Assembly (NCBI GenBank): GCA_002633005.1
Contig: NMRA01000855.1
Location: 1-64,000 of the forward strand
Length of the DNA: 64,000 nt
From: Phoronis australis
Lineage: Eukaryota > Animalia > Phoronida
Direction: 5' to 3'
Shown here: one piece after another, positions 7,281-50,104 of the stretch
Layout of the letters: each line of letters opens with the position of its first letter
Position numbering within the stretch: position 1 is the stretch's first letter
Notes under the pieces: model-generated
Seen by the model: the letters and a program-made list of their open reading frames with translations, nothing else
Database searches by the model: none
What the model was told of the DNA's origin: nothing
Program-made: the position numbers and the translations under genes

Positions 7281-7410
7281 ATGAAAATGAGGCTAAGCGA
7301 GGTTTGCTTTGTGCTATTTGTGGTCCTGGGATGTATATCAGCCTACACACTACGAGACTTGTTTCAAGCTCTTGAAGACAAAGAGAACGAAAAGAAAAGC
7401 CAAGCAGAAG
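7281..7410 (+). CDS. Gene A coding exon 1: signal peptide and start of propeptide of a putative neuropeptide precursor
   Basis: Acceptor TTTCATTGCAG ends at 7266; ATG at 7281; MKMRLSEVCFVLFVVLGCISA-YTLRDLFQALEDKENEKKSQAE has a basic N-region, hydrophobic core and small-residue cleavage site; donor AAG|GTAATT after 7410 (phase 1). Confidence 0.85.
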
Positions 7411-8309
7411 GTAATTGTAACAGAAGTCTGAGACCCTCCAAGCATTTACCAAACGTTCCTTGACTGGATTCAACATATGGTGTACCAGCTGCATTGGAAA
7501 TTTTGTAATGCTCATCACACTAATAGTTACTTCTATGATTATTTTTGTACAATAGTGAAGTAAGGTTACGTAGGGCCACATCGACACGTCTGTGTATTTA
7601 TCCAAATACCTGTAAAAATATAGATTTCAAGTTAGTAAACGTACAGTATGTACATTTTGAAAGTAGAAAGCCTGTACAATTTGATTTTCAATTTTACAGC
7701 AATCTCCCATTAATTGGGCCACTTCACCAAGCCTTTTAAATAAAATTAAGCAAAGAAAGAAATGTACATGTGTAACAAATTAACGGTAACAAAAACATAA
7801 CCAAATCTGGTTTGATATAAATGTCCAAGATAGTATCTTGAAAAAGCTGTTACAGTTTTCAAAATTATTTCGTTTTCCTTTCATACAACTCTGGATTTTT
7901 TCAGAAAATTCATAAAAATCACATCTATTAATAGATGCTCAAGCAAAACTGAAACACTTGGAAATTGTTTTATAAAACAGTGCATGAAGCCAAGTACATG
8001 AAGGTTTCCTGTGAATTCAATAGACCATTTATGAGTTGTGATATTAGCATTGGATACTTTCCCATGATCCTACAACACCTTCAAAAAAAAATCTTATAAC
8101 TGAATCCCATCACTAAGCTGCTCCTTTTGAAAACTCGTTTTCACTAACAGAAATGTAATGATTATGGAAGATGTAACTAACAGTAACATGTATTTACCTT
8201 CACACCAAAAGGTAAGTTGAATCAATCAATCAAGCAAATACTTAGAAGTTCAACAAGTGTACAAGTGCTTGAAAACTTTCAGCCACTGCTCTTCATTTTG
8301 TACTTTCAG

Positions 8310-8809
8310 CCGAGGTCAAGAAAGACACTATTCCAGAACAATCAAATGTTAGTGGTAAGAATGACAATAGAGAAAAAGAACTTCTAGAAAAATTGTTGAA
8401 GTTACTTGAAGACAGGAAGAAGGCAAAACAAGTTCTGATCAACAACAATGACTTGAAGAAAACTGTGACTGAGAAAAAGACAGTGACGCAACAGAAAGCG
8501 CTTAACAACAGGGACCAGTACTTTTCACCAAGTCAGGACGTTCCGCAAGTCCGAAATTTTGGGTACTACCCGTGGAAGTTAAGACCTCAAGGCGTACCCC
8601 AAAAAGGATCGAATTTACAGCAGAAGCGAAATTGGGGAAAGTATGGGCGTGAGCTGCAGAACCTGAAAAGTAATGCGAACAGGGCATTCGGACCATCTGG
8701 CCTGGACTATAATCAAAGATATATAGACGCATATGACAGAGATTATATAAGAAAGATGATTTATGAAGAAATAGAGAGATTGTTCTTTAGATCTAAGGAT
8801 CGGCAATAG
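8310..8809 (+). CDS. Gene A coding exon 2 (terminal): peptide-bearing region of a putative neuropeptide precursor
   Basis: Acceptor TACTTTCAG ends at 8309; phase-1 join is in frame with ORF 8393-8809; encodes R-NFGYYPW-K, KR-NWGKY-G-R, R-AFGPSG and C-terminal DYIRKMIYEEIERLFFRSKDRQ*; spliced product 209 aa; paralogous to exon 49671-50104. Confidence 0.88.
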
Positions 8810-8834
8810 AGAGTATTACACAGCTAAGAATTGA

Positions 8835-8840
8835 ATTAAA
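8835..8840 (+). terminator. Candidate polyadenylation signal (ATTAAA) for gene A
   Basis: ATTAAA ~25 nt after the stop, followed by a T-rich tract near 8865; AT-rich context makes chance occurrence plausible. Confidence 0.3.
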
Positions 8841-10819
8841 ATCGACAATCAAAATACAAAAATTATTTTTGTAATTTCAAAAGCTAAGTTCTTTCAAGAC
8901 CATAGCGAATTGGACACAGTCCAGTACTTTTGGAATTAATGTATTTTTCTTTACAAGCTTGGCTTTGAGGCATGTTTCCATTTTATATGCTTTAGCCAGA
9001 TCTCAGAGATGTCTGCTGTTTAACAGATCAAACTAAGAGCAGGCAGCTTTATGTCGAAACCTGACTTTCCGGAGGTCAACTTTATCAGAGGATGCATGAA
9101 AAACAGTACAATGTAGATATGTTCAAAGTGATCCATTCAGGATGTGAGGCTTGATCACTGTTTCACACTTTCGCCATAGAAATGTATGAGTGCAGAGGTC
9201 AGACGTCAAGGCAATGAACTAGACAGGTAGTAAGATTTTTTTAACTGAACATTATATAGAGTCAGTCATCGATTATCTTAAAGCAGAAAAGCCCATGTAT
9301 TAGGTAGACCGGTAAGTCTCCCAATTCTTACATTATACCTGGTGTTGGGTAGAAGTCACGTACAGGGGTCCAGCACTTGAAAAACAGTTTTCTCTGAATT
9401 AAGTAGGTACCAAACTGGTTCTCAAAATGCAGACACCTGTGAGTGACTTGTTGCCAACTGTTGTATATTTCTGACTCATGGGCGTGTACTCTCCTCAGAA
9501 ACCTTTTTGGTGATTCCTAGATTTAAGAACAATTAATGAGTATTTTTCAGTTATTTTGCACAAAATAATTCCCTACTGACCAGTTCTTCAAAGAGCAGCC
9601 GTGATACAACAGGTGCACGCATCAAGCCAGTTTTGGAGGTACAGCAATTCTTCAAGTGTTTAGCACATACTATGGCCAGCAAGTGAAATTCTATTTTGTC
9701 AAATTTCTCCACGGAAATCGTGGTTTGTACTGTAACTGGTGGTGAATTTCCAATATTTTCAGCGCGACCAGCCTTTGAAGATTGGAAAAATGGCAATGTT
9801 GGCAAATATTTTTGTGGGGAAAGAGAGGAGAATTACCAATTCATAACATACATCAAGTTGTATCCACACTTAACTCTACCAGATTGCCATGGTGTTAGAT
9901 TTTAATGGTGCCATATTAGTCAGAACTTTGATGTTCCACTAAGGCTCATGTGTATTACCGTAAACATTCGGGTTAACGCCCTGGGTGGTTGAATTGGCAA
10001 ACCCAAAAAATCGGGGGTGGGCGGTTAACCAGACATGGGCGCTTAAAAGTGAAATTTCAAGAAATCCAGAGTGGATGGTTAACGGAACATGGGCGCTTAT
10101 TACGACACGCAACCGCCCTGGGCGGTTAATCTTACCTCGTGATCTATGTCCCCGCACCACACAGAAACTCGGAAGGCGTAGCACTGTTCAAAGAGCGCTA
10201 TCGTCATGTCGCCAAATGACGGGAAAAATGTCATAAAACCGGATGATCCCAACAAAGGTTCTGGTGCCCTCAGATTAGTTATTCACAATTAAATTTACAG
10301 AATTGCTGAGTAATAGCCCCGTGCCGTCCTGCGGTCTTGTTACTTTGCCCTGTAGAGTGCAGACGACCAGAGACCTGGCAGCCTCTACGAGGATTGCAAC
10401 TATTTCAAGATCTGACCTTGCTAAAGTGTGCGAGTGCAAGCTTCATGTGCTACAGAGGTCATAACAGACATCAAATTTATGGTTACAGTCTCGTACTAGC
10501 TGTCAAGTTCATAGTCAGAGAGCAGTTTCAAAATTAGTTGTAATAAAAGTTTGAAAAACTTAATTCAGATGTTTTTTTGTGTTTGGGATGTTTATAGTCG
10601 ACACTTTCAGCGTATGGTTCTAGGGCTAGCAGCTTTATCTCGATCGCCCGGCATTGCTCACTTGCCGATGCGCCAAACATGCTCGGCAAAGAAGTAGGCA
10701 TAAGACAAGAATCGGGGTTAAGCGGCCGTGAGCCACTTGTCAAACAGGAATAAAATTTCGAGCCAAGGCATAAATATGTAATAAAACGACACAAAACAGC
10801 GTTTTCAATTCATTCTTAA

Positions 10820-11922
10820 CCCTTTCAACACCGCAGACCGCTTAAGCGGTCTCTGAAACTTACCTCCATTCAACGCTGTGGACCGCTTTATCGGTCTCAC
10901 CATACGCCGAACTTCCAAGCAACAGAATATTTGATTGGTTGATTACGGGAATTCTTTTGTGTACGTCACAAATTTAAATATACCCTTACCTTCATTTCTA
11001 ACAGCTTTTCTGATTCGTTGCTGAGATGTAACGGGAGTTATTGAAGGGGTTTCTAAGAATTGAGATCGACTCGCGAAAACAAAATGTCGGCCGACGGCGA
11101 TTCAGACGTAAGCTTTTCAAATGACGAAATTGGCAAAAATGTGTATGCTTTTTACTTAATTAATATACAAGATAATCCAAAAAGGAATTCTTATATATCT
11201 GGCCAGATTTTGTTAATTATTAAGACAAAGAAGTTGAATTACATGGCTTTGAACCGGAGGAAAACTTTACAGGTCGCGAATTTCGCAATTGGGTCAAACA
11301 AACGCCGTTGAACTCCGACAACTTCGCAAATTTTCTGAAAAATGTGGAGTCTTCTAGAGTGTACGATGGTTCTGATAAGCAAGTTGAGTACTTTAAAAAT
11401 TTCTATATTGATGAAATATTAGGTGAAATTGTCAGGGTAATTAATTTGAACGCCCAAACGAAGCGCGAGTCACAACCGGAAGTGGACAAATTTGAATTGT
11501 TGAATTTAACGTTCGCCTAATTTAAGTCACTTTATGGCCTTCAAATGTAAATAGAAGATGTGAAATATGATCGAAAATGTATCTTAAGAAAGAAATTTTA
11601 CTGAAGAATATTGACGACACTCACTCATAAATCATTTTTATTCTTTAAACGATACATTGAATTTGCAAATTGGCAAACAAACACCGGCATTTCAGGTGTT
11701 ACTTACCTGCATCAGGTGAGAGACTGAGATTTTTTACTTTTGGTGAAATTGTAGATAAAGTTCATTCTGTTCTCTACATTTTGGTGTATTACACTTTGAA
11801 ATTCAATGATAAATGGATTGTTTATGGAATTTTGAAAACAAGCACCTCAGTTCAGCCCATGTGTGCTAAGTTACTTGGGGTTCAGGGACACAATGGCCGA
11901 CAGTTACTTGGAGTTGAAAGGG
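10820..11922 (+). mobile_element. Internally deleted piggyBac element
   Basis: TTAA TSD at 10816-10819 and 11923-11926; TIR CCCTTTCAAC / GTTGAAAGGG; subterminal GACCGCTT..CGGTCTC repeats; transposase remnant inside. Confidence 0.85.
11308..11550 (+). pseudogene. piggyBac transposase N-terminal remnant
   Basis: VEYFKNFYIDEILGEIVRVINLNAQ...LTFA*FKSLYGLQM resembles the piggyBac/PGBD motif F..FF.DEI...IV..TN.YA...T..E.K.F.GL; interrupted by stops; lies within piggyBac TIRs. Confidence 0.7.
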
Positions 11923-12098
11923 TTAAACGATCACCTTACCAAACTTCGTGGTGGAAAAACATTTATTTTTCATGCAAGATGTCCAGATTATCCTATTTAT
12001 ATCAATTGCAATATCACACTGCAGCACTGTTCGGTCCCGCTGTTAGCGACCAATGTCTCAGTTGGCTGACAATCGTGACTTGGAAATGCTTTCAAGTA

Positions 12099-14594
12099 CA
12101 CATAGTGTACCTAATTATCGGACGGAACCTAAATATCGGACATTTCATAGAATCTTACTTGAAGCATAATCTGAGAATTAAATGACACCAATTTTTGTTC
12201 CGTTGTAATGCATTCAATGTCCAGATTTCATTTTATGGATAATTTTGTTGCAAATGGACCTGGGTTCTAGCAGCATATATGTCAAAACACTCGAGCTGAA
12301 ATTTGGCGACAAGGTGCCCGCGGCCATTACATGGTTAGTCAGTTTTCCGCGGTGTGGCATATGGAGAACCATGGTGTCCGATATTTAGGTTCTCCGAAGG
12401 TTTGGTTGTTGTGTTTTTTGAAGATCAGTCGGAACATAAATGTGGCTTTCAGTGACAAGATATAGTAACAGAACAATTCCGTGAAGGTAAATCTTTATTT
12501 CAGAAAAGAATTTACAACAATCCGTAGTATTTTCAATTAAATACAAGAGCAACGCGGAGCGTTGAAATGCGCCCACAATTGCACCGCATACGGTATCCTT
12601 CTAGGGTTGTTTATTGGTACCATAAAGTGGCCAGTAGAGGGCATACTTTGCAAAATGGAAAGGCATGGTCATTGTCTCCTCAATAGGCTAGGGGCAAAAT
12701 GTGAGTAATCTTCATAATACAAGCACATCCTATACACCAGTTGCTTAAAGCACCACAGAAACATAGAATTAAAAACAAATTTACCAACATACGAGATTAG
12801 CACAGCATTAGAATGCCAGAAACAAATTTCTACTTGGAACTTTTCCTTCACAGTCACGAAGTAACACAAAGTATACACCTGAAGACCTATGAAAATACAG
12901 AGGTCAATGTAAAATACTAAAATTGCCACTAGAGGCAAATACTAAAATTGCCACTAGAGGCATACCGGTAATCAGAATCATCCTAAAGTCGTCATCGTCC
13001 GTTGTCAACATCACATAAATACACTTGCTAAATTTAGTAAAGATCCTGCAAACGGTTTGGGAGATACAGCCATGGGCGCAAAAAAACAAAACTGCCACTA
13101 GGAGGCGCCACAGTAGTCCAAATCGTCTGAAAATCATTGTCAGCTGTCTTCCTTATAGTAAGCACATACACGCCAATTTTCACAATCATCCTTTGAGCGG
13201 TTTGGTTGATAGAGGGGTGGACGCAAAAATACAGACTCGAAAACAGTAAAAATGGCCACTAGGTGGCGCAAACTACGTCGAATCCATCTGAAAACAGTAG
13301 GATAGCGTCATCTCACTAATAGGTGCCTACATACCAAATTTCATGAAAATCCGTTCAATACTTTTGAAGATACAAAGGTAAGCGTAAAAAACTAAAATTG
13401 CCACTAGGGGGCACACCGGTAGTCGGATCCGACCAAAAGTCGTCATCTTCCGTTGTTAACATCATATAAATATACTTACACAATTTGTAAAGATCCTGCG
13501 AACGGTTTAGGAGATACAGCCATAGGCGCAAAAAAACAAAACTGCCACTAGGAGGCGCCACAGTAGTCGAAATCGTCGGAAAATCATCGTCAACCATCCT
13601 CTACATAGTAAGCATATACATGCCAATTTTCACAATCATCCTTTGAGCGGTTTGGTTGATAGAGGGGTGGACGCACAAAAACAGACTCGAAAACACTAAA
13701 AATGGCCACTAGGTGGCGCAAACTATGTCGAATCCATCTGAAAACGGGAGGATAGCGTCATCTCACTAATAGGTGCCTACATACCAAATTTCATGAAAAT
13801 CCAATAAGGACTTGTGAAGATACAAAGGTAAGCGTAAAAAAATTAAAATTGCCACTAGGGGGCACACCGGTAGTCGGATCCGTCCAAAAGTCGTCATCTT
13901 CCGTTGTTAACATCATATAAATATACTTACACAATTTCGTAAAGATCCTGCGAACGGTTTAGGAGATACAGCCATAGGCGCAAAAAAAAAAAAACTGCCA
14001 CTAGGAGGCGCCACAGTAGTCGAAATCGTCGGAAAATCATCGTCAACCGTCCTCTACATAGTAAGCACATACATGCCAATTTTCACAATCATCCTTTGAG
14101 CGGTTTGGTTGATAGAGGGGTGGAAGCACAAAAACAGACTCGAAAACAGTAAAAATGGCCACTAGGTGGCGCAAACTATGTCGAATCCATCCGAAAACGG
14201 CAGGATAGCGTCATCTCACTACTAGGTGCCTACATACCAAATTTCATGAAAATCCGTTCAGGACTTTTGAAGATACAAAGGTAAGCGTAAAAAACTAAAA
14301 TTGCCACTAGGGGGCACACCGGTAGTCGGATCCGTCCGAAAGTTCGCACATGCCGTCCCATTCATGAATGGAACATATGTGCCAAATTTCATGAACGTAT
14401 GTCAAAGGGTTTTGGAGATAGAGCAGCGGACGCCGGACGCCAGACGCCGGACGCCAGACGCCGGACGCCGCCCGGACGGACGGACGGACGGACGGACGGA
14501 CGGAGATGACGGCATAATGCGTCCACATATAAATATGTGGGCGCATAATAATACAAAATGTGCCAAAACGTCCGATAATTAGGTCACTTGACTG
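12099..14594. mobile_element. TA-flanked Tc1/mariner-type MITE split by a HINE-like insertion
   Basis: Inverted ends ACCTAATTATCGGAC (12109) / GTCCGATAATTAGGT (14570), internal CCTAAATATCGGAC / GTCCGATATTTAGG; TA on both flanks. Confidence 0.65.
12543..14548 (+). mobile_element. HINE/pearl-like (Helentron-associated) non-autonomous element with internal ~450 bp higher-order tandem array
   Basis: Starts ACAAGAG; subterminal inverted repeat ATGCGCCCACA (12567) / TGTGGGCGCAT (14536); (GGAC)n and GGACGCC microsatellite at 14428-14503; 3' hairpin CCACATATAAATATGTGG; about three ~450 bp units each made of three ~145-160 bp subunits; second copy at 23199-24902. Confidence 0.85.
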
Positions 14595-15431
14595 TAATAT
14601 ACCGGTAACGGCCTCTTTCAATATGCGTGTAGTTTTTTATGGCGAAAGACAGCGGCGGGATTCAACACACATGTAGGGCCTACGTGTGACTCACCTGTCA
14701 ATCACATGTTGGTGTCAAGGTAACATGCACTCCAAAGTGTGGGAACTTGTGTGCACCACTACAAAGTCACACATCAAAAGAGAATAGCGACAGTCCTAAG
14801 TAACAAAAACGGGCGTGAATATGTACTTTTAAGCTGTTGTTATGAAAGACCCAGTTCTTTACGACATTCCTCCGTTGCCAATGTTCTCCAAAACTGCGAT
14901 GTCAAGTCTATTACGATATTTCCCGGCTCGATACTCCCTAAGCCCATGCCCGTAGCTAGCTGTGTGAATCTCCTATCCACCATCGCCAATTTTCAGTCAG
15001 TCTAAGTCGTAGATATTTTCAGATTCGAATAGTAAGAATTTTTGTTCAGGCTAAACCACCGACTCGGAGGCCCAGCGTCGTTGCACTCATTGTGATCATC
15101 AATCTTTTTCTAAGTCAGGGAATCGCGAGTTTTCTTAGCAATGGGCGCTAAATCTTCATTCTTTAAAAGACGGGTATGGACGCTTAACTGAGAGGTGGGC
15201 GCTTAACTGGAAATCTTCAAAAATCGCAAGGGGGAGCGCTTAACCGAGCAGAGGGCGGTTAAATCGAAAATCCACCTAAAGTAGGGGGTGGGCGGTTAAC
15301 TGAGCATGGACGTTAACCCGAACGTTTACAGTACATGTATGCAACAACACAGAAATCTAAATGAAACTTCAAGCAGTAACAAGATTGGGTACAGCAGTAC
15401 ATTTTTTGGTTTATCATACCCTGAAGCTTAA

Positions 15432-16157
15432 GGTACACGTCTACCACCGTTGATTTTTTCATTGCATTGACCATGATATTTCTTAAGACACATCATTCAA
15501 TAGTACTAGGATTGTGAGATACTTGAGACCACATCATTCAATGCCTTGTGAGTTAAAATACTTTTAGAAGTTTTGTACATTAGTTTCCGCTACGTGCGTG
15601 GATATATTGGGACAAAATTTTGTACCTATGAATGACGTTTGGGTGAGGGAGTGTCTCCTTCGAACAGCGACATACCAGCTGTCAAAAATGAAGGCTTGTG
15701 TCGTTTTAATAATCTAGAGATTGAAGGCTCATACCTGAGACATAATTCCTTGTGTACTGACAGTACAGAATTTATAGTTCAAACACAAAGTTGTCTACTA
15801 TTTAGGTTTTTTTTTTGAAATATATATTTAAGCCTGAAGTGATACTTTTCAAAAATGGCAGTAAAGTGACAAAGACATGACAGCACACTAATTATAAACT
15901 AGAAAGATTATTTTAACGGCGTAACAATAATGGACTCTGCGCGTGCGTATTGCTGGATTTGTTTTGGGAATACTGACAGCAACCCGTTTACCAACATGAA
16001 AAAAAATTCTTTAAAATTGTAGGAGAAATTACATGTTAATATTTTGATGACCTTTCCGCTAATTGAACTCTTCCGATGCATTATGAACCCCGATCAGGGA
16101 ATAATTGTAAACTCGATTTAAAGTGTGGTTAATCATAAGAATCACAGATGTTTTACC
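15432..16157. mobile_element. Possible Kolobok-like MITE
   Basis: TTAA flanks; imperfect TIR GGTACACGTCT / AGATGTTTTACC. Confidence 0.4.
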
Positions 16158-16169
16158 TTAAGCACTTTA

Positions 16170-17100
16170 GAATACAAAATGAATGAATTGGTCAAACTTT
16201 CAGAAGAAAAAATGCACCTAACGACCCCAAAGGTGCACCAAATGACCTGAAAATTTAGAATTGAAACTCAATCGCATTTAGTACAGATATTAATTTTGAA
16301 GTCTCTAGCTCAAAATTTTAGTTTGCACTCAATGACCTTTGACCTATTTTTTCTGATTGGTTTGGCCTATTGCGTAGTAAAGTAGGGTGTTCAACTGGCA
16401 TGTTGACTTACACTAGTGTGCTGAAATTAAAAAGAATTCCTTGAAAAATGTAGGAGATATAAAATTTTGAACGTTAGATGACCTTTGAACTAATTGACCC
16501 AATCCGGTACATTATAAGCGTCTTTAGGAGAATTGTTGCAAAGCCCATGAAAGGTGTGTAATGCTGAGAATCACAGCTGTCTAACGGTATACTTGGTAAA
16601 TGAAAAGGACAAATTTTCAGAAGAAAAATGCACCTAATGACCCCATGGTTGCACTAAATGACCTGAAACTTTGTACTTCGAATTGAATTAGACGTACCAA
16701 TCAGACTTGTGAATTTGAAGTGTCCAGCTCAAAATTTTAATTTGCACCTAATGACCTTTGACCTGTTTTATCTGATTGGATGATTTGATTACTTAGAAAA
16801 GTAATTTTTTAAATTGTCATGTTGACTTATACCTGTGTACCGAATTTGAAAAAGATAGCTTTAAAACTGAAGGAGTAGCATTTTCAAAATTATATGACCT
16901 TTGCACCAAACGACCTTTTTGCGGTGCAATATGGAATATGATTATATAACGAATCAAAATTTATGTACTGTCAAAATTCATATGCTGAATTTAAAGAATG
17001 TACCTGCACCCAATTTGGAGTTATTAAGCCTCAAAGTTGTTCGGAAGAAGAATAAGAATAAGAATGAAAGCGCTCCGAGGAGCGAAACTTGGCGAAATTA
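16170..17100 (+). repeat. HINE/pearl-like repeat of a second family (TGACCTTTGACC units)
   Basis: Two diverged ~420 bp units (CAAA.TTTCAGAAGAAAA..TGCACCTAA.GACCCC at ~16193 and ~16610), then an (AAGAAT)n microsatellite and a CGCTCCGAGGAGCG hairpin at ~17071. Confidence 0.65.
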
Positions 17101-17106
17101 ACCAAA

Positions 17107-17400
17107 AAGATGACGATAAAGATGATGACGAAGATGACCAATATGACGACGATGGTGGCGAGGATGAACAAAAGAAGTATTAATAACATACACAGGACGA
17201 ACGTAGAAGTCCGAAATCAGTAAGAAAAAGGCTACAATCTTGAGCGACACTTGACGAAATTAACGGAAAAGACGACGACGGAGATGATGACGAAGATGAT
17301 GACGAATATGATGATGGTGGTGGCGATGATGAACAACATCACAACATTCATATGACGAACTTAGATGTCATAAATCTATAAGAAATAGGCTACAGTCTAG
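17107..17400. repeat. GAT/GAC low-complexity tract, two ~170 bp tandem copies
   Basis: GATGATGACGAAGATGA..AATATGA..GATGGTGGCG..GATGAACAA repeated at ~17121 and ~17283. Confidence 0.7.
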
Positions 17401-17429
17401 TTCAATAGAAGATAAATCAACATCAATGC

Positions 17430-19772: not shown

Positions 19773-20169
19773 AATGTGCCGTGTTTTAAGACATGAGTTC
19801 CACACAAAAATTCAAAAATTTATATAAGTTTATGATTGAAACTCGATTCTTAACAAGTTTTTTGATAAACATTAAAAAAGGCTTTATGAAGGTTGACGAA
19901 TACCTATAAGATTTTTTCACATAATGTTAACTTGAAAATTATTCTTAATAATGTATCTACTTCATATTAATAATATGTGAATTTTCATGCATGTCACCCA
20001 GTCACAGTGAAGACGTGTATAAAGATTAAGATCTTATATGTTTAGAAATCTTTTAACTCAAAAATAAAACAAGGTTTTAACCAAGAAAAATTTTGATGTA
20101 CAAGTCAAGCTGTCAACAAAGCTAATTACTGACTTTCTAAAACCGCTCTGAGGTGGTGGCGTATAACAA

Positions 20170-20273
20170 CTATTATTAAAATCTCTTGGTCGGAGAATAG
20201 ACCGACCGAAATGTCGTGCCATTGTAAATAGACCAGAGGTCGGTGTAAATAGACCAAAAGATTTTAATAACAG
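20170..20273. repeat. ~100 bp foldback / mini-MITE
   Basis: CTATTATTAAAATCTCTTGGTC pairs with GACCAAAAGATTTTAATAACAG; internal GTAAATAGACC direct repeats. Confidence 0.6.
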
Positions 20274-22700: not shown

Positions 22701-23120
22701 AACAAGATGTGTGTTAAACAATTGCATCAAAAACCACACAGCACCCTCCTGTGGCATTTGTCCAAAATTTAATTGGTGTTGTCTTATCCGCAATAAAAGC
22801 AAGAATTAATGCTTAAGTTCACAAAGAACCCTCAAGCAGTATAAGCAGAGAGCTACATGTAAGGCACACCAAAAAGTTGTTTCCAAGAATATAAAATAAT
22901 CAGGCACCCTCCTGTGGCATTTGTCCAAAATTTAATTGGCGTTGTCTTATCCGCAATAAAAACTAGTGTTTAACTTCACAAAGAACCCTCAAGCAGTATA
23001 GGCAGAGAGCTACATGTAAGGCACACCAAAAAGTTGTTTCCAAGAATATAAAATAATCAGGCACCCTCCTGTGGCATTTGTCCAAAATTTAATTGGCGTT
23101 GTCTTATCCGCAATAAAAAC
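22701..23120 (+). repeat. ~160 bp tandem array at the start of a third HINE-like element, truncated at an assembly N
   Basis: Begins AACAAGA; unit GCACCCTCCTGTGGCATTTGTCCAAAATTTAATTGG at 22741, 22903 and 23061; ends at N 23121. Confidence 0.8.
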
Positions 23121-23198: not shown

Positions 23199-24902
23199 AC
23201 AAGAGCAACGCGGAGCATTCAAATGCATCCACGAATGCACCACAAATGGGGTGCGTCTAGCCTTGATTATTTGCATCAGAAAAATAGCCACTAGATGGCA
23301 CAAAATGTCCAGTACTTCTAAAAGCGGGAAGTGCTATCTAAGAAGCTATCTAGAAAACTATTTACCAAATTTCATAAAAATCTATCAAGGAATTTCAGAG
23401 AAACAAAAGAAACGTAAAAAAATGAAATTGCCACTAGGAGGCACAGCATTCCTTGGATCTGCCTAAAAGTCGTCTTTTTCTGTTGTTAGCTTCATATAGA
23501 TACCCTCACTAAATTTAATAAAAAATCTGGAGTGGGTTTAGGAGATATACCTATGGGCACAAAACAAAACAAAACTATCACCACGAGCCACCACAGTAGT
23601 TCAAGTCATCGCCAACCGTCCTCTTCACACTGAGAACATATACGCCATCTTTCAAAATCACGATCCTTAGAATGGATTGGTTGATAGAGGATGGACTCAA
23701 AAACAGCAAAAACAGCCACTAGGTGGTGCAAAATTCCTCGATTTCATCCGAAAACGGGAGGTAGCGTTATCTCACCAATATTCGCCTATATTCCAAATTC
23801 TATGAAAATCCATTGAGGACTTTTGAAGAAACAGACTGAGGTAAATGTAAAAAACTAAAATTGCCACTAGGGGGGCACACAGGTAGTCAGATCTGTTCGA
23901 AAGTTGTGGTCATCTGTTGTCAATATCATCTAAATACATTTAGTAAAGATTCTGCCAACGGTTTAGGAGATACAGCTACGGCCACCAAAAAACTGCCACT
24001 AGGAGGCGCCACAGTGATCAAGAACATCAGAAAATCATCATGAGCAGTCCTCTTCATAATAAGAACATGTATGCCAATTTTCACAATCATCCTTAGAGCG
24101 GTTTGGTAGATAGAGGGGTGGACGACAACAAACAGATTCAAAAACAGTAAAAATGGTCACTAGGTGGCGCAAACTACATCAAATCCATTCCAAAACTGAA
24201 TGCCTATAAGCCACATTTTATGAAAATCCGTGGAGGACCTTTGAAGAAACAGCGGTCTGTAAAAAAACTAAAATTGCCAATAGGGGGCACACCGGTAATC
24301 AGATCTATCTGAAAATCGTCGTCTATTGTCAACATTATATAAATACACTTGCTAACTATACTAAAGATCCTGCAAACTGTTTAGGAGATATAGCCATTGG
24401 TGCAAAAAAACAAAACTGCCAGTAGGAGGCACCACAGTAGTAAAAGTTGTCAGAAAATCATGTTGGCCGTCCTCTTTATAGTAAGAACATACACGCAATT
24501 TTCACAATCATCCTTAAAGCGATTTGGTTGACAGAGGGGTGGACACCAAAAAAACAGACTAAAAAAGAGTGGCCACTAGGTGGCGCAAACTACATCAAAT
24601 CCATCCGAAATCAGGATGATAGCGTTATCTAACTAATAGATGTATACATGCCAAATTTTATGGAAATACCTTGAGGACTTTTGAAGATACAGACTCGGGG
24701 AAAACGTAAAAAACTAAAACACCGGTAGTCGGATCCGTCCGAAGGTTCCCTCATGCCATCCCATCTAAGAAAGGACACGTGCAAAATTTCATGAACATAC
24801 GTCAAACGGTTTTGGAGACAGAGCAGCGGAAGGACGCCGCCCGGACTGACACACGGGGAAGATGGCATAATATGTCCACATATAAATATGTGGGCGCATG
24901 AA
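23199..24902 (+). mobile_element. Second, more diverged copy of the HINE/pearl-like element
   Basis: Same 5' end ACAAGAGCAACGCGGAGC, same ~440 bp three-subunit array, same 3' hairpin GTCCACATATAAATATGTGGGCGCAT as 12543-14548; microsatellite eroded. Confidence 0.85.
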
Positions 24903-27843: not shown

Positions 27844-27939
27844 NNNNNNNNNNNNNNNNNNNNNNNNNNNNNNNNNNNNNNNNNNNNNNNNNNNNNNNNN
27901 NNNNNNNNNNNNNNNNNNNNNNNNNNNNNNNNNNNNNNN
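27844..27939. other. Assembly gap (N run)
   Basis: Run of N bases. Confidence 1.
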
Positions 27940-28133
27940 GATTCACTCCATTTCTATTTTGTATAAATTTTCGATTGGTTTTAGGTAAAAACATTATACT
28001 AACAAAAATAAGTCGGTGTGTCTTAAAAGGTCAAGACCTCCAACCCCGGGCCTCTGATATAGAAAGTAGTTACAAAGCCGAGGCGAGTTGAGAAAGGTAG
28101 ATTCATTGTAATGTTTCTCGTTCAGTATGTGGT

Positions 28134-34573: not shown

Positions 34574-34745
34574 ATTGGTTCGATATAAAAGCTCGTGCAG
34601 CAGAACGACATCCACTTTCACATGACATTTACGAAAACACAGGAAAATAAAATGAACGAGCATCAGGACACCCCCCTACCAGTCGTTGACAAAGAACTGT
34701 AGAGTACAGTTCGAAATGTTCGAACTTCTAATCCCCGGTCTCCGA
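34574..34745 (+). promoter_or_regulatory. Candidate core promoter and non-coding first exon of gene B
   Basis: ATTGG (reverse CCAAT) at 34574, TATAAAAG at 34584, pyrimidine-A initiator-like sequence ~25-35 nt downstream, consensus donor CGA|GTAAGT after 34745; the ATG exon at 40695 is preceded by an acceptor, so an upstream exon is required. Confidence 0.55.
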
Positions 34746-35386
34746 GTAAGTTGATTTTACTTATAAACAAATCTTCACCCAGACCATGAAAAAACCTTTT
34801 TCAATCGAATGATCATCAGTTGGGTGGAAAGCTAGTACTGCGCTGCACGTTTAACGCAAAAGAAATTAGGAACTCAAAAAGTTGTGTGTACGGGATTATC
34901 TGGGTTTGGTATGACCATTGACAAAAAAGAGGAAAATTTTCCAAGTGATGTATAGTTCCGCAAATAAATAGGTGTGATAGAAATATTTATTGTGTTGTAA
35001 AATTTAACTGAAATAAATGTTTTTGCATGAATAAAATGAAAAATCATGAAAAAAGAGAGGAAAAAAGAAGGAGCTGGAAACCAAATAAGAGGAAATCGAA
35101 ACCAAACAGGAAATCCTCTTGAGAGGAAAGTTCCAAGCCCTGAATTCTCCTCTTATTGTGCATGAAATAATTACCAAAATTGTCATTTTCCATTTTTCAA
35201 AGTTACATAACTTTGCTACAAACAGTGAAAATTCACCAAATGTTGTTTCATGATAACACCGCAGTACAAAGTAAGATAGTTATAGACTAAAATTTTCTTA
35301 ATTTTCGTTTTTGTGAAGAAATTGGACAAAATAGAATTTCCCTTGCCGGCCATATTATGTGCAAAATTAAGTGAAGAATTACGGTA

Positions 35387-40500: not shown

Positions 40501-40701
40501 TAGCACTAGAAAGGTTATCCACAGTGATGATTGATAATTACTTCTCTCTAATTCCCTTCCATGACGTCTTAAGTTTGGATACAAAACTCTGATAAGACTA
40601 CACAAAATCACTACAGCCGTCAATGACTATTTTAATATGGCAGTAAATCAATGAGTTAATATTCATCAGCACGCTCGTTTTCAATAATTTCCAGGTCCGA
40701 G

Positions 40702-40813
40702 ATGGTTACAGTGAAAATAGTCCTCCTTGTTCTATGTGGAGCAGTTCTTACTATGGCTAACTTCCACAATTTGAAGAGCAGTGACCATGACCAAGGCTAT
40801 AGGCGATTATCAG
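40702..40813 (+). CDS. Gene B coding exon 1: signal peptide of a putative neuropeptide precursor
   Basis: Acceptor ATTTCCAG ends at 40694; ATG in good context (GAGATGG); MVTVKIVLLVLCGAVLTMA-NFHNLKSSDHDQGYRRLS; donor CAG|GTAGGG after 40813 (phase 1). Confidence 0.82.
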
Positions 40814-43800
40814 GTAGGGCAAAGTGTTATAATGATAATGGGCCAGTGTACCTACTTTACAACACATATATGGTAAAGTTTCTTCAAATTTAAACACAGT
40901 ATGGCAGCACAGTAAAATTTTATTTTAACAAAAATTTTTAAAAGAGAACAAATTTACTTGATTATTTGAAAATGGATGTAATCAGCAAACACACGGTGAA
41001 ATTTAGAACATTTCTGGCATACAATAAGCATTCAAAAATTACCATTTTGGCCAGTATTTGTGTTCAAAATGAGGAAGTTTTACCAGAATAGGGACTGTTG
41101 CAGCTAGAGTATACTTTAGCACAACTTTACCTCAAACATTCCAAAATAACAGTTGAAAGGTCTTGAGAAATTCATTCAAGACGCTTTGAAGATTAGGCAT
41201 AATTATTTGTTTGTAAACTAGTCAGAAGTTGTCAGTTTTACCTTGAGTGTGTGCATTATATTATGTTATGGTCTTTAATTGTTATATGGTGACTGAGTAA
41301 GCCCATTGAGGCTGGGGGATGTGGTGAATATTCTGTATTCACTGGCACCCTTATGTCATTATAACAAATACACTTTGCGTATGCTGTAACAATGCCTATT
41401 AGAGTAGTTTCCTCAACAAAAAATAATGGCCAAAACGGTATGTTTTTCCATTTTCCACTGCCTTGTTAAAAATACAGTTACAGTTCACTATTCCACCAGA
41501 CGGTGTTCCACATAGAGAAAACTTAACCCTAAAAGGACATAACTACTGAAAACACCTGCGAATTTTGAAGGACAGAAAACCAAAAATTAAGGTAACTTTC
41601 TTCTATAAGTTTTAAGATCAACACAAAAGAGAAATTCAAAGTAGTGTGTATTCGTAACAATGCCTGTTGAAAACTGGAAACCTCTCCTGATCTTTGGTGA
41701 GTGGAAAACTGAAATTTGGTATGCTATTCCATCATAAGATTACCATGGATAGAAAAGAGAAATTCAAATAGCAAATGTTCAGTGTTTCATGTCGTCACCA
41801 GCAGTCCACCTGTTCTTGTTTTTCAAAGATATTTTCATTTCAGAAGTTTTTGCTTTAATTAATTACAGCATCCAGTTCTGCTGAAATTCCAATCGTCACA
41901 AACCCCATTTTTATGAACTGCAATTATTGATCAGTTTTGGTTACTAACCTGCTACTGAGTCCTTTGGTTTTTGTGCAGTGAAATTCTGTGTGCACAGCTC
42001 AGGAGATTACAGTGCCGTTGTATTTCCTTAATTTAGAAGAATATAATACTGATCATTGAAATTTTTTTAATCACAATTCTTAACAAAAAAAAGGAAGAAA
42101 CTTTACTTCAATCATTATTTGCTCAAAATACATTGTTATTGACAAGCACATGATGAAATGTTGAGCATTTTTAACAATACTATTAACTGTGTTAGTGAAT
42201 TCTGATTAATTTTATAATTATTTAGAAGAGAACCATTCATAGTTACTTGAGGACAAACCAAAACTCACATTTCAACCATAAATACTCCCTAAAGTTATAT
42301 AGGACTAGCAAAAATGTCCAAATTTGGTCAATTTTGGAACATCACATCTCACATATGGCTGATAGGATTCATATGAAACTTTCAGGCGCCATGTTTTGTG
42401 CACTGTTCTCCAAAACACAGTTAGACATTGTTTTTAAAATGTTCCACTTTTACATGAGGTCATCAAAGTAAGACTTATACAAAAATGAAACATTGCTTTT
42501 GAGATATAACCTTGAACATGTTTATCAAACAAAATTTGGTTGTCTTATTAATATCGTTATTTGCTATGAAAGTATCTTTCACTTTTGTGATATGTTACTG
42601 TTAGATATCATCAAATGACCAAATTCACCGCAGATTGGCAAACAGCCAACTAGGTATGCTAGTTTCAGAAATATTTTTATTGAGTTATGATCCATCATTT
42701 GCAGATATTTGGCTAAATACAAAATTGTCGATAAGGTCCTAGTACATAACATTTAAGCACAAAATACAGAATCATTTTTATGTCATATCATTCAATATCG
42801 CATGAAGTAGTTCCACACTAAAGAGACTAAACGACCATAATCAATGAAACATAATGTTGTAACACGAGGCATTCAAGTGGGCCACCTGGACAGTTAAATA
42901 TCGAAACATAATATCACAGGAGAGGACAATTAAACAATTCAGCAGCCAACTTGATTTCCACAACATGAATGTTTACCAGTTCATCTGTCCATCAACCCAC
43001 TGGGCATACATTCCATTCATTGACAACTTAAATCAGGTGTAGAGAACATTCCAATACAAAATTGTGTATTACATCACTAACTCCATTGCAAGTTTTGTGG
43101 AAAGACCACGCACTAAGAACCATAAGCTAGCTGCACATGCATGGAAGACAGCTGTCACAGAGCAACTAGCACGTAACAGCTGATCGGGCACAAATGTATG
43201 TTTTAACACAACTGACACAGAGCAAATTGGCAGCCATTTTTGATGCCAGTTTGAGAAGTAGTGCGAGTTGCACTCAATCTGTTTCTCTTTCCGTTTCTGT
43301 GGTGACGTCAGAGGGTAGGCACCGGGATAGTCTCTGGCCCTCCTCCACTCAATCAGTTGCTCCAGTTTCAACTACACGTCTAAACACAACTGGGGCACGG
43401 AGGAAAGGGACCATCTTTCAATGGGCTTGCGCAATAATGTAAATACAGGTGATCTGCTGGTATTCCACGTGGTTTGGGCGTTCGCTATTGGTTATGCGAG
43501 CATGCGCAGACAGTCTTCGTGTAAATGGCACAAGGTGACCCAGTTTGTGATCTAATGTTGTGTAAATGCGACTGAAATTGGAACAAGTCATTCCGTGACA
43601 TTACTTGCACCTCGACAACTGTTCCCCGTGTAAAAACAGCAATCTATGACAGAAAGTAGCAGTCTTTAACAAATTCCTGAATTTATCCTTCAACATCGAA
43701 GTTATGCATTAGTAGGTGACAAAACGACTCATGATTTGTTGAAATCATCAAGACTGGGTTTAGTATCCTTTTAAGAGAAGAAATTTATAACAATGATACA

Positions 43801-44276
43801 TCACTAACTTTGACTGGATGTTGCTTGTAGGTATTTACACAAGTGCTACTTTCAGTAGAATGTTTGCTTTTGTAAATTGTGATTCCTGTAATTGCAGTCA
43901 AGAAGTTTTTCACAATACACTGAAAATTGTATGAACTGTTACATATACCAGCAAATGGGAATTCTACATAAAACGTGGGTGCTTATAGAGAACTTACAGC
44001 GATTTTAGAATGATGAATTTCCCCTAAGGATGGCTGGATACAAGCTGAACTTATTAATTTTAACTATCTATCACGATTAGGAATAACAGAGAATTTACAA
44101 GAACGTTAACAAGATAAAAACGCTATGCTGTTATGCATTTTGCTGCATTGACAAATCGATGAGATTACTTTTGATGTACTGTGGCTGCGGTATAATTTCA
44201 TCAATTTAGGAAACATAGAAAACAAGGGAAATATACTTTCACTTTTAGTAAGTCTAGACAGTGGTGATGGCCAATA

Positions 44277-44450
44277 GTGAAATGTATCAAATAAACACAG
44301 AAAAATGAGGAACCCCAACTGGGAATCGAACCACAGGTCTCTAGATAACCAGTCCTTAGTAGCTCACTGGTAAGAGCGCTAGCCTGACAATCTAGAGAAC
44401 TGTGGTTCGATTCCCAGTTGGGGTTCCTGATTTTCTGTGTTTATTTGTTA
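44277..44450. repeat. tRNA-derived foldback element (pseudo-tRNA at ~44353-44424 with an inverted copy of its 3' half)
   Basis: A-box TAGCTCACTGG, D-arm GCTC/GAGC, loop CTGACAA, B-box GGTTCGATTCC; left arm AAATAAACACAGAAAA..AGGAACCCCAACTGGGAATCGAACCACAG.TCTCTAGAT is the reverse complement of the right arm. Confidence 0.75.
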
Positions 44451-44452
44451 TA

Positions 44453-45833
44453 CCGTATTCGCCGTAATAACTGCCCATGCCCCTATAAGTGCCCCCCACG
44501 CGTTTTCAGACTTTGCTGAAATAAGCGCCCAGTCCATGAACGTGTACACGCGAACAATGACGTACATACAGTCCTAAAACTCGGCTACAGTAACATCTTC
44601 AATTTATTAAAAAAAAATTGCACGGGTCTTCAAGACCACCAGCGGCACTGCTACGGTTGTATTTATCTGTGACTTTACACATGAGAGTAACGCAGCGCTT
44701 CAAAAAGAACGCAACAGCGTTGCTACGCTCTCGCGACTACCACGTCCCACTATGGTCTGACTTTTCAGTAGACACATTGATCGACTGTCTCATGAATAAA
44801 AATAACTCGGTGTTAAACGCACGTGGCTACATATCCATGAACCTGTCATCAAAGACATTAGTCGGGAACTATCCATTCATGAAACGGGTAGCATAGCATC
44901 AATAAGAAATGAATATTGGCACTAATTTCTGACAATTTCTAATACTATAAAACATGTTTGCATTATATTTGAGATGGATTGTTTGATTAACCATAATTGG
45001 TGTTTATAAGCCGAATATCCCATAAAATGACAACTGACAGTGAATGCTTACACACCCTTACACCGAAAAATAACTGTCAGATAGTTACGTACGCATCAGC
45101 TACACGGCGACTAATATGGGCCTTACCGAGGCAAATGTCGAAAGTTTTTAGCACGAGACCGGCAAGTGCTGAATGAAACACACTCTGGTTTAAGCCTACT
45201 GCTTGTGCAAATTTCTTTAGACACATCTAGCTAGTTAGGTTGCGTGGCTCTGGCCAAAAGACGGTCTCTGCTTTGGCAAATGAACTCTGGTGACACGCAC
45301 ACACTCGCTTACTCGCAGACGAACTTCAAAACAAATGTCACGTGACAACAACATGTGTGTTCGTCCAGACATTTTTCTCGCCGTGTTGCCGATCATACAT
45401 GTAGATGGCACGATGTTGCACAGATTTGTACTTAAACCTACCGTTAATCCATACTCCACGGGAACTTAAAAAATCTTGGAGACGCTGCTTATAAAACTTA
45501 ATGAGGATTTCAGGTAATTTGCTGGAGTCGAAAAAATTTTTATTCAAGCATTGAAGTCGCTATATTGAAGACGGCAATTTCGAAGCAGTCAGTCGGCGAG
45601 TTTTTGCCCTGGGATTTCAGCACACTTTTCCTATAACATTTAGCAGCAAAGTTTGATAGCAATGCACCACAGTTTTGTTGAGTCTTTCATAGCTTACATA
45701 TACGTCACAGAGCGTAAATTTGATGAATCTTAGCTTCCGATTTCACCCGTTTCGGAGACTGGGCTTCAACCGCCTTGGGTTATAATAAGCGAACTTTTTT
45801 AAGCGCCCTGGGCGGTTATTACGGCGAATACGG
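44453..45833 (-). mobile_element. Full-length Tc2/pogo-like MITE, inverted relative to 5307-6697, in an intron of gene B
   Basis: TA TSD both sides; TIR CCGTATTCGCCGTAATAAC.GCCC / GGGCGGTTATTACGGCGAATACGG; collinear reverse complement of the 5307 copy. Confidence 0.9.
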
Positions 45834-46047
45834 TACTTTCACTTTTAGAAACGTACATTACGTTAAGTGCAGGATGTGTTGTTTTCTAGTTCTATACCAT
45901 AGGTTCTGTCAGACAATCTTTGTTAAAGTGAAAAAAGGTCAATTTTTGTAATTATTTTGTCTGAAATTGGTGAGATGTTACCATACAAGACTATAATACC
46001 ATAATCTGTTTACACATTGTACTCTCACTGTTTAATCATCTTTTCAG

Positions 46048-46218
46048 ATCAAGTGGAAAATTCAAAAACAAGTGATGACTATCTCATCCTAAAACTGAGA
46101 CAACTCATAGACATCTTAAAAACTAAGCTTGAAAGAAATAAAGAGACTACAAAACGGCTTGAAGACATGCACTTAGACGAGGCTCGTCAGAAAAAGGAGG
46201 ACTCCGAGCTTTCCAAAG
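46048..46218 (+). CDS. Gene B coding exon 2 (charged, helical spacer)
   Basis: Acceptor CTTTTCAG ends at 46047; donor AAG|GTAACT after 46218; 171 nt, phase 1 to phase 1, open frame DQVENSKTSDDYLILKLRQLIDILKTKLERNKETTKRLEDMHLDEARQKKEDSELSK with KR/KK sites. Confidence 0.78.
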
Positions 46219-46801
46219 GTAACTTATTGGGACCAATTACTTTAAACAGCAGGTTCTGTGGTATCTGTGTGAGACTTAAACAACACTTTGTGACACGCAG
46301 GATATATTCACTTTTCAATTATTCCAAGGAATATTTTAACTCATACCAGAGTTTTCGTCCACATTTTTTTCAGGACTGGCACTGAGCAGAACCTATACCT
46401 AAGAAAAGAATACATAGTGCCATTTTCTTTTGCCCTAAAACCTGGAAGTCCCAAACACACACGCTTGTCTCAAGATGCCATACTTTGCAGGATGTATGAG
46501 TGAATTAGCCCCAAACTGCTGATGTTTTGGCTAGCACATTTTTAGCCAGATCCGTTACATTAAAGGACACACATGCCAAAGGGATGGATCCCATTGTTAT
46601 TTAAACAATTCATTACAGAGTGCCTCAATACCAATACTTTAAATTCATTGTGGAGACTAACTAACATTTACATCATTCAAGTAAACCAAACATATTAGGA
46701 TTTACAAGTTTTGTACAAGTCTCACATCTGTAGAGAATATATACAGCAAAATTCTGGGGCAATAAATCTTTAGGCATTACAGGGGATCCCAAAATTTTTA
46801 A

Positions 46802-48489
46802 AGGAGAATGCCACCTGATTTAATTAGTCCTTTTTGCCGTCTTAATTGGTCTATATCCACATTGCCACGCATACGGTCGACCTTACCTTGCCAAGAGGTG
46901 TCGCGTTAACCTGTGAAGAAGGTGAGAAACGACGCTAGCAACGTCAGTGGTTCATCTGCAGAGTGAATGCCGATATGTTGCGGTGCATCGTTCCCGCTTG
47001 TCCGAACTATGCAGCTGCGAGGAAAGCGGGTACATCGGGTTTTTTCGACATCCTCGAGAGACAGAAATACTTAGGAAGTGGCTCGTGGTAGTGAAGAATG
47101 AAAAGTACGCTGTAAATAGCAAGTATGAGGCTGTGAAGCATCTCCGTGTCTGTAGCCTGCAGTCGTCGACAATGCCCGACGAATGCCGGCTTACCAAATA
47201 ACTATCCAATCGATACGTTCTGTTGTCTGAGCTTGTTCACGGTGCCTCTCTAGTATTTCTTCATCACTGTATTCCTGTTCGAATTGATAGCCTGTGAAAC
47301 TTAACGATCAACCTGCGAAGTCTTCGTAGGGATCGACTGATGAGCTCTGGTCTAAGTCGGGATTGTGAGTTGCCATGTTGATGTTTATTACTGAGCGTTC
47401 TGTTTCAAAGTGAATAATTCTCACCCTAACCAATACTTATATAAAACTGAAACAAAGTCTGCCTCATTAGATGCAATTTGTAATGCCTTTCGAGTGTTCG
47501 TGAGTGCAAATGATTTGAGAAGCCAGCAATGAATAAATCACTGCGTTACCAGCTTTAGGTGCAATAAAACTAATTGACAGGACACCGAGGCCGTGTGAGC
47601 TCATTCTAATTTAGCGTTTGCTGGCAGAAACTGTTGTGAAACAACTCATTCGATTTCCACCCCACGGCTTGGAGTTAGGGGAGTCTTTATTTACATTTAC
47701 ATTATAAAAATAATCATTGTCAATGAACAACCTCTGCCCTGACGGTGCTGTGGCCAAAGCAGAACCTAAATTGGCGGCCCCCGACGAGTAAGTAGATTTG
47801 CAGTTTCGTGGGTAATTCACCAAAATAATCACGTGCGCATTACTTTGGCTCACTAGTATAGTATTTTCATGACTGGAAGTTTAGTTTCCAACTCTGGCTG
47901 GTTTATGTTCGTAACGTCTGATCAGTTTGCGAGCCACTGGCCGGATAACGAGTCAATCCAGCCGGCCACAACGGGCCTAATCGGGCTCCGAGCCACTGGC
48001 CATAATAACAAGCATTTTGTGTGTTTAGAACTCAAAAAAATCACAAGTCTAAACAACACAGATCGGGGTTATCCTGTCTGTATCTCACGGATAATACTTG
48101 GAATTTGTCTCCGAACAGACCCAAACTCCTGCTACGGACCTTATTGGCCTGCCGAACTTTGGAGGCTATGGTGTGTCCAAATACCAATAAATCCGTAACA
48201 GCGAAATAAAACAACACGTTTTTATAAGAACTCGGTATATTTTTGAGGATTCTACATCGAAGTTTGATGATTTATTGGTGTTAAACGATAAATTTAAGCG
48301 ATAAGCTGACACCAGTTACCAGTGCTGTTAACTAACAGATTGCGTGTGAAACCAATTACGTCATTGGATAATTTCGACACCTCCGTCTGCCGTCAGGTGT
48401 CGGTAACGCAACCGTACGTGCCGTTATGGAGTAGAACTACTCGATCTAAATTGATACAAATTAGGTTGTTTTTTGGGTGGCATGCTCCT
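46802..48489 (+). mobile_element. Non-autonomous Kolobok-like transposon in an intron of gene B
   Basis: TTAA TSD both sides; TIR AGGAGAATGCCACC / GGTGGCATGCTCCT; THAP-domain remnant near the left end, as expected for Kolobok transposases. Confidence 0.8.
46967..47165 (+). pseudogene. THAP zinc-finger remnant of Kolobok transposase
   Basis: MPICC.. start in one frame, then GFFRHPRETEILRKWLVVVK...KHLRVCSLQ in another, matching the THAP signature F..FP......KW.......RVCS.HF; frameshifted and the His ligand is lost. Confidence 0.72.
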
Positions 48490-49670
48490 TTAAGGAAAAT
48501 ATTCTGTGAGACTAGGAAATGGATTTGTTGTTAATTAGTGGTGTGTTTCATATTCCAGGAATTCGAAAGTTTAATTTTGGACTTTTGGCACCAAATACAA
48601 AAAGTTCTACTTCTCCAACCTGACAGAAAAAAATGTTCTATTGTTTTCTGCAGTGGAAGTTGTGTTCGATTTGAAATGGAATGAGAAGTTGTCATTATGA
48701 CAAAATCCATTCATTTCATCACTTCTGTGATTTGGAAATGAAAGGTTTCAACCGCTGGAATATGCAAAATACCACTAGTTTCCAAGAAACCCATTCTCTC
48801 CTGTTCGCATTTCAGAGTATCCTTGTTAAAACTTTTAGTCATCCTGTACAATGGTGCACACAATTTTCTTGAATAATCGAGGATTCTGATAATGATACAT
48901 TTTTAGTCACCTTATACATTCGTGTACACAAGTTTCTTCAATAATCAAGGATTCTGATGATGCATTGCTCCAGAAGGTGAAAATATGGACATGGAAGATA
49001 TTAAGAAGTTTTGATTCTTGATAGCAAATGTAGACAGTCTTAAATATCTGATTATCTATTGTAATTGACTAGTGTAAATAGAGCTTGCGGATGTTGGAAA
49101 AGACAACAAAATCCCTTTTTGTTACATTATGACGTTTAATACCCAAACGTGAATATTTAACGCCAGGTTCTTTCACTCAAATAATATTTTTAACTCTGCT
49201 GACACCAGAGTGTAGGAAATCCTATATTTTGCCTATTAATATAGCTCAATGTTTATTGCATCACACAACGCATGACATGGCAGAAAACTACATCAATTCA
49301 CAGCAAAACGAAAGTTGGACACAACAACAAAAATTTGCTGAAAAACTGCCCCCTGGAAGATTTCTCCAAACATGTTTTTAGAACATGAATGTTCGGATAC
49401 TCAAGGTGGTTAAAAAGGGCAATAAAATCCATCCCATCTGGCCTAGGCAGAGGCAGATAGGTTACTGAACACATAGACTATGAAACCCCTCACATTCCCA
49501 CCAATGCAATGGGTGGAAAATCCCGAGATTGGAACTAACTGTTCTTGGCCCCAAGTGGTACGAACGGAAATCTTTGAATTTAATTACAGAACATTTAATT
49601 GCAACAGCTACAAAGAACTTGCAAAGGTAACATTAATTTCTAAATTAAAACATCCTCGTCTGTATTCCAG

Positions 49671-50104
49671 AGAACACAGCTGAAGAGCCGGAGGACACAG
49701 CGAAGGCGGCCAGATTGAAAACCTTGCTGCAGAGTCTAGCTAAGAAAATGAACACCAACACCAATGACGGCAATGAATCTGAAGAAACGCCACCTAGTGA
49801 GAGAAACTTTGGACCACATGGTCAGGAAGAGAATGTTCATGATAAATTAGGTGCGAGAAACTTTGGACCAGCCGGAAAGGAAAATTTGCAGTCAGTGCAC
49901 AAGAAGGGTAATTACGACTCGGAAACAAAAACAAGCGAAGGAGACGTCAACGAATCGCAAGAACGACAGAACTTTGGTCCAGCCAGATTGGCGGAAGCGG
50001 AAAATGCTGATGACAAGCGAAATTTTGGAACGTTTGGACGAAGCTTGAGACAGATGATTGACGAAGAACTAGAAAAGGTGATGCAGAGGAGAGGAATGAA
50101 ATGA
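49671..50104 (+). CDS. Gene B coding exon 3 (terminal): peptide-bearing region of a putative neuropeptide precursor
   Basis: Acceptor TGTATTCCAG ends at 49670; phase-1 join is in frame with ORF 49715-50104; four NFG units (R-NFGPHG, R-NFGPAG-K, R-QNFGPA-R, KR-NFGTF-G-R) in acidic spacers; ends SLRQMIDEELEKVMQRRGMK*; spliced product 238 aa. Confidence 0.9.

Follow-up and report, generated by a model that had tools for sequence, protein, structure and literature searches.

The question raised by this locus is whether two genes on contig NMRA01000855.1, here termed gene A and gene B, encode precursors of secreted peptide signals and, if so, to which peptide family these would belong. The window (the whole stretch of DNA analyzed, 64,000 nucleotides (nt), positions 1 to 64,000 of the forward strand) had initially been annotated, from its letters and reading frames, as carrying a tandem pair of paralogous prepropeptide genes. 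Both genes are spliced and transcribed, and their products display hydrophobic N-termini and repeated peptide units. On balance we favor the reading that A and B arose by an old tandem duplication and encode secreted neuropeptide or peptide hormone precursors, for NWGKY-amide (gene A) and NFGTF-amide (gene B), which we could not match to a described family. The processing, the neural role and the type of receptor proposed below are predictions that draw on general knowledge of the pathway.

Both genes are on the plus strand and 31.9 kb separate the stop codon of A from the ATG of B, as anticipated by the initial annotation (two spliced genes ~32 kb apart on the same strand). A run of N at ~27850–27940 marks an assembly gap between them (there are 99 N in the whole window), thus the true distance and the content of the gap are uncertain. 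Splicing of positions 7281–7410 and 8310–8809 gives a clean translation of 209 amino acids (aa) for gene A, and splicing of 40702–40813, 46048–46218 and 49671–50104 one of 238 aa for gene B. The coding introns are of the GT-AG type and all three are in phase 1, after residue 43 in A and after residues 37 and 94 in B.

Four public runs were used for evidence of transcription: X1, consisting of contigs whose RNA origin is a guess, and X2, X3 and X4, raw RNA reads from one study, of which ~18%–19% of each run was sampled. All three of the junctions proposed initially are present. Junction 7410/8310 of gene A is spanned by 41, 38 and 89 reads in X2, X3 and X4, respectively, and by one X1 contig. 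The first mate of all these reads maps to the minus strand, as expected for plus-strand RNA with most types of stranded library. The joint 3123/7267, which leads from a non-coding exon, is spanned by 16, 15 and 54 reads in the same runs, and the X1 contig that crosses it adds 65 letters before position 3000. For gene B, junction 40813/46048 is found in a single X1 contig with 37 letters on the short side, with 0 reads listed in X2–X4, and junction 46218/49671 in one X1 contig and a single read of X3, with none listed for X2 or X4. The acceptor 7 nt before the ATG of gene B, together with 37 letters of the X1 contig that map elsewhere, suggests that both genes probably start with a non-coding exon, and we infer one upstream of gene B. 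Exon depth in X2–X4 is 19–78 for gene A and ~1 for the last exon of gene B. Thus the two genes seem to be differently expressed, and appear to serve different tissues or stages.

Two small features were seen at the 5′ end of gene A. A TGACG half-site at 2894 and a TATAAG at 2919 form, by eye, a candidate core promoter (2894–2945) just 5′ of the projected start of the gene A X1 contig. The 5′ untranslated region (UTR) exon shows a length polymorphism of ~21–25 nt at 3085–3107 among runs X1–X3.

Each protein displays one hydrophobic stretch, at its N-terminus, with hydropathy peaks of 3.17 in A (residues 9–19) and 3.29 in B, within residues 6–19. Past residue 35 the maximum is 0.41 and 1.21 in the two proteins, i.e. 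there is no further hydrophobic segment, and Cys is absent past residue 18 in both. The predicted signal peptide is encoded in an exon that ends in a phase-1 intron, as first described. The Leu-rich helical pro-region and the shared C-terminal motif of the initial annotation are recognizable as well: Leu-rich amphipathic 11-mers occur in the pro-region and at the C-terminus of both proteins, and a C-terminal R-x-M-I-x-E-E helix is common to them.

R-(Q)-[NA]-[FW]-G units are present three times in gene A and four times in gene B, every unit lying wholly inside the last exon (Table 1). The repeats first described as R-[NA]-[FW]-G-x-x-(G) are real; the description needs amendment in that one gene B unit reads R-Q-N-F-G and 5 of the 7 lack a good amidation site. 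A peptide with an amide-donor Gly between basic sites is found in one of the three units of A and one of the four of B, and these two cassettes are located exactly where they had been placed. Among the remaining five units, one (R-NFGPAG-K, proposed earlier as a source of NFGPA-NH2) would be amidated only with a cut at a lone Lys, one might be released as a pyroglutamyl peptide without an amide, and the other three lack a nearby closing site. The invariant part is thus the start, x-aromatic-Gly, and the conserved element of the units is the N-terminal N-aromatic-G and not the C-terminus. The single Arg that closes both cassettes has an Arg at P8 and a Leu at P2′ (in gene A also a Lys at P4). 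This Arg P8/Leu P2′ pattern fits the rules for monobasic cleavage.

Processing would proceed as follows. Signal peptidase would remove ~20 residues, and the amphipathic helices may aid sorting to dense-core vesicles. Prohormone convertases would cut behind KR and behind single Arg, carboxypeptidase E would trim the ends, and PAM would convert the Gly into an amide. Each gene would then yield one amidated pentapeptide, acting on a rhodopsin-type G protein-coupled receptor (GPCR). The use of KR and G-R sites for processing points to a bilaterian animal. The other five units may give minor, mostly non-amidated single-Arg products (one of them pyroglutamate-first), or may be decayed copies.

Table 1. 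Exons, untranslated regions and peptide units of genes A and B (positions in the window).
Feature	Positions	Strand	Remarks
Gene A non-coding exon 1	3000..3123	+	extends 5′ of 3000; joint 3123/7267 is GT..AG in RNA reads and X1 contig
Gene A exon 2	7267..7410	+	14 nt UTR, ATG 7281, predicted signal peptide, phase-1 intron next
Gene A last coding exon	8310..8809	+	amphipathic Leu-rich helix, 3 units, C-terminal helix, stop
Gene A unit 1, R-NFGYYPW-K	8552..8581	+	single Arg, without amidation Gly
Gene A cassette KR-NWGKY-G-R	8624..8650	+	predicted product NWGKY-amide
Gene A unit 3, R-AFGPSG	8681..8701	+	without basic residue behind Gly
Gene A 3′ UTR	8810..9600, end approximate	+	stranded depth reaches ~9600
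Gene B first coding exon	40695..40813	+	acceptor 7 nt 5′ of ATG 40702, predicted signal peptide, phase-1 intron
Gene B middle exon	46048..46218	+	amphipathic helix rich in Leu, phase 1-1
Gene B last coding exon	49671..50104	+	4 units, C-terminal helix, stop
Gene B units 1–3, R-NFGPHG-Q, R-NFGPAG-K, R-QNFGPA-R	49802..49987	+	alike at DNA level
Gene B cassette KR-NFGTF-G-R	50015..50041	+	predicted product NFGTF-amide
Gene B 3′ UTR	50105..50752	+	X1 contig reaches 50722; AATAAA at 50747

The relationship between the two genes shows in the last exons, which display 28% identity over 100 residues (E-value = 3e-5 for the pair). The mature parts of A and B align with a score of 77 versus 45 ± 7 for shuffled sequences, and none of 2000 shuffles scored as high. 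For the last 30 residues, 9 of 5000 shuffles did so. The significant similarity is confined to the units and a 15-residue C-terminal stretch. No third copy was found in the window by tblastn, and no other gene was found between A and B (none of 17 long frames, and none of the 88 short frames compared out of 257, matched Pfam). The paralogy claimed initially is significant only by way of the units and the C-terminal stretch, and A and B are likely to have originated by an old tandem duplication.

A pattern for the strict cassette occurs twice in the six frames of the window and in none of 60 Markov-simulated windows, and the number of R-(Q)-x-[FWY]-G units in each protein was reached by 0 of 20000 shuffles; both patterns were chosen post hoc, from the sequence itself. 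Sequence variation was taken from the 40 best-supported variants. In the last exon of gene B, the X1 contig shows 3 substitutions in 434 coding nt versus 18 in 618 UTR nt (21 of 22 listed; Fisher p 0.008–0.028), none of them inside a unit. In the coding part of gene A, the three listed variants are all synonymous.

Among the families compared, the kisspeptin group (amphioxus KP1–4, echinoderm KP1 and KP2, and the SALMFamides) appears to be the nearest lead, and the initial annotation overlooked the likeness to its C-termini. A and B could be shortened kisspeptin, KP2 or SALMFamide members acting on kisspeptin-type receptors. Amphioxus kisspeptins end in W-S-x-F followed by G-R (PMC9400282), which parallels the aromatic-G-x-aromatic-G-R of A and B with its nearby Asn, and echinoderm KP2 peptides end in G-x-F-amide or G-x-x-F-amide. 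In KPP1 and the vertebrate kisspeptin genes, a phase-1 intron separates the signal-peptide exon from the exon for the peptide; this is also the arrangement of gene A, with an extra exon in gene B. KP precursors are known to occur as paralogs on a single chromosome or as several copies. However, ArKPP2 is a single-exon gene, and many genes for secreted proteins have a phase-1 intron after the signal peptide (PMC7259759). When the C-termini are compared by eye with the kisspeptin pattern (L/G-x-F-amide or aromatic-S/G-x-F-amide), the G-T-F-amide of gene B fits, whereas gene A ends in G-K-Y. The kisspeptin-type peptides in PMC9400282 extend further at the N-terminus, and those of chordates read N-x-aromatic; members of this type are longer peptides whose core contains one or two Asn. 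Cleavage at KR would instead leave five residues, with Asn at position 1 adjoining the aromatic residue, and the seven units are conserved at the N-terminus and not at the C-terminus. A shortened kisspeptin is considered unlikely.

Several other families display partial similarities. NG peptides are defined by an Asn-Gly motif (PMC4772807). The peptides of A and B are like NGFFYamide and NGIWYamide in being Asn-first amidated pentapeptides after KR with an aromatic last residue, on a precursor of ~238 aa; unlike them, the units read N-F-G or N-W-G, and there is one cassette in place of identical tandem copies. The NG (NPS/CCAP) type is ruled out, as it was initially: the Asn-Gly motif and the C-terminal 14-Cys neurophysin are both missing (no Cys past residue 18 and no Pfam match). 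The sea cucumber NG precursor is not known to have a neurophysin either.

Bombesin-type peptides of echinoderms have a C-terminal RIFGPxx-amide, and the first intron of their genes, in phase 1, splits the peptide-coding sequence. Unit 3 of gene A resembles the starfish peptide at N-x-N-R-x-F-G-P, and F-G-P is present in 4 of the 7 units, but unit 3 has no amidation and the precursors of A and B are twice as long. This type is ruled out by units that are unsplit in the last exon and by an F-G-P that is not followed in register by x-x-Gly-basic.

Achatin (GFGN) and NdWFamide are likewise short and have an aromatic residue second in line, where L-to-D conversion takes place in Aplysia peptides. 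An Aplysia isomerase converts aromatic residues at position 2, and a D-residue in the A and B peptides is thus conceivable, as a speculation. Achatins are ruled out as usually Gly-first tetrapeptides (GFGN/GFAD) sharing just the aromatic-Gly core, and NdWFamide as a tripeptide directly behind the signal peptide, the A and B peptides being >100 residues downstream. Hemichordate NNFamide, with its repeated C-terminal NNF-amide (probe sequence in PMC10508912, S1 Table, inspected by eye), is also ruled out, as neither protein has an NNF. Spexin-2, kinin and crustacean FLRFamide may show some resemblance too.

Searches for relatives gave no positive hit. The last exons had no homologue at E ≤ 1, either in the two candidate sets (42 and 62 sequences) or among the 7989 longer proteins scored, and a HMMER profile of both last exons gave 0 hits at E ≤ 0.001 against 1.84 billion representatives. 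Of 270 and 132 pattern matches in metagenome contigs, none was confirmed, PDB sequences gave 0 matches, and Pfam nothing above threshold (two sub-threshold matches to the gene B exon). A full-text literature search, to which figures and most subscription papers were outside the scope, yielded no neuropeptide paper by title for four pentapeptides and one unrelated match for the cassette terms. Four motifs gave 0 matches in seven supplementary files of PMC9793003 (crinoid), and there were 0 exact-motif matches within 8,325 characters of the PMC6188537 supplement. In the precursor supplement of PMC8557429 (3.85 million characters, with not all places of frequent terms covered), the motif matches shown are sulfakinins, allatostatin B, leucokinin and other unrelated contexts. 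The strings NFG and NWG are absent from the available main texts, figures aside, of PMC5627052, PMC6586643, PMC4772807, PMC6188537, PMC8557429 and PMC9793003. The A and B peptides could not be assigned to any described family in these sequence sets and papers, which agrees with the initial annotation. Membership in a family already described elsewhere is rather unlikely: nothing relevant came from the full-text motif searches or the precursor supplements, although most subscription papers, all figures and the bioRxiv supplements, among them a table of hemichordate neuropeptides, lay outside the search scope.

Alternatively, A and B could encode secreted proteins of a non-neural or granin-like kind, with short repeats that are never set free as signals. 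Five of the seven units have no full cassette, and Lys and Arg make up 16%–20% of the two proteins, so that basic pairs are common. The presence of exactly one complete cassette per gene, both starting with N-aromatic-G and ending in G-R, unmatched in the simulated windows, argues against this alternative, which appears quite improbable.

The reading of A and B as duplicated neuropeptide precursors has a number of observations weighing against it. Of 20000 shuffles of each protein, 2162 and 2433 (11%–12%) contain a generic cassette (dibasic...G-basic), thus one cassette by itself is weak evidence. With two of the seven units forming complete amidation cassettes, the label N[F/W]Gxx-amide family in the initial annotation is too strong, although NWGKY-NH2 and NFGTF-NH2 are still predicted. 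Three of the six listed coding variants of gene B alter a residue (none in a unit), and the X1 contig over 8641–8832 of gene A has 10 differing letters, 1 of them listed. The protein, metagenome and PDB queries were single exons, run with no positive control for animal precursors, so that the blanks in the databases are weak evidence. As to paralogy, when the N[FW]G motifs are masked the A–B score is 42, a value matched by 1150 of 2000 shuffles (chance level); the region of the C-terminal test was chosen by eye; the coding exons have no listed similarity at the DNA level; and the exon numbers differ, gene B having a further phase-1 intron. These last points other than the C-terminal test would also suit two unrelated adjacent precursors sharing a motif by convergence, but this is very improbable given the same strand, no gene found in between, and the same rare unit and R-x-M-I-x-E-E helix in both.

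If the duplicated-precursor reading is followed further, it can be suggested, with low confidence, that the peptides form a new family with an N-terminal Asn-aromatic-Gly as the active core, in which residue 2 may be a D-aromatic, and whose amidated members would be ligands of an orphan GPCR, for instance, should the animal fall within the hemichordates or lophotrochozoans, the kisspeptin-type receptors of those groups. According to PMC13020265, no ligands are known for the kisspeptin-type receptors of hemichordates and protostomes, and annotation of the hemichordate neuropeptidome is described elsewhere as incomplete (10.64898/2026.04.13.718258). Should the animal belong to such a group and the peptides pair with these receptors, a known ligand gap would be closed. 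Otherwise A and B would be another lineage-specific pair of orphan precursors, of use for marking neurons and as an example of how peptide repeats decay once a gene has been duplicated. Orphan precursors are frequent in invertebrate surveys, e.g. 20 in crinoids (PCNP1–20) and 14 types among the multicopy peptides of xenacoelomorphs, which like A and B are predicted short amides with no known family; no PCNP peptide spelled out in the available text matches A or B. A specialist would thus be interested and not surprised. The two five-residue amides can be synthesized and are directly usable in receptor screens.

The window contains several repeated elements. A 1.4 kb element with 84% identity between its copies is present in an intron of each gene (5287–6697 and 44453–45852), in opposite orientations and with RNA reads on both strands; it is likely to be a mobile repeat. 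It was rejected as a sign of the A/B duplication, being inverted and acting as a dispersed repeat. In the gene B intron, a tRNA-like sequence (44295–44440; Rfam RF00005 at 44353–44425, 44.6 bits; none by ARAGORN) has an inverted partial copy just upstream that forms a long hairpin, and is possibly part of an element of the short interspersed type. Arrays of ~145–160 nt units, with a 450 nt higher-order period and a GGAC/GGACGCC microsatellite tail, are found at 12900–14500 and 23400–24800. Downstream of gene B, a recent local duplication of ~1 kb (55357–57034, 94% identical) surrounds a C-rich stretch of low complexity.

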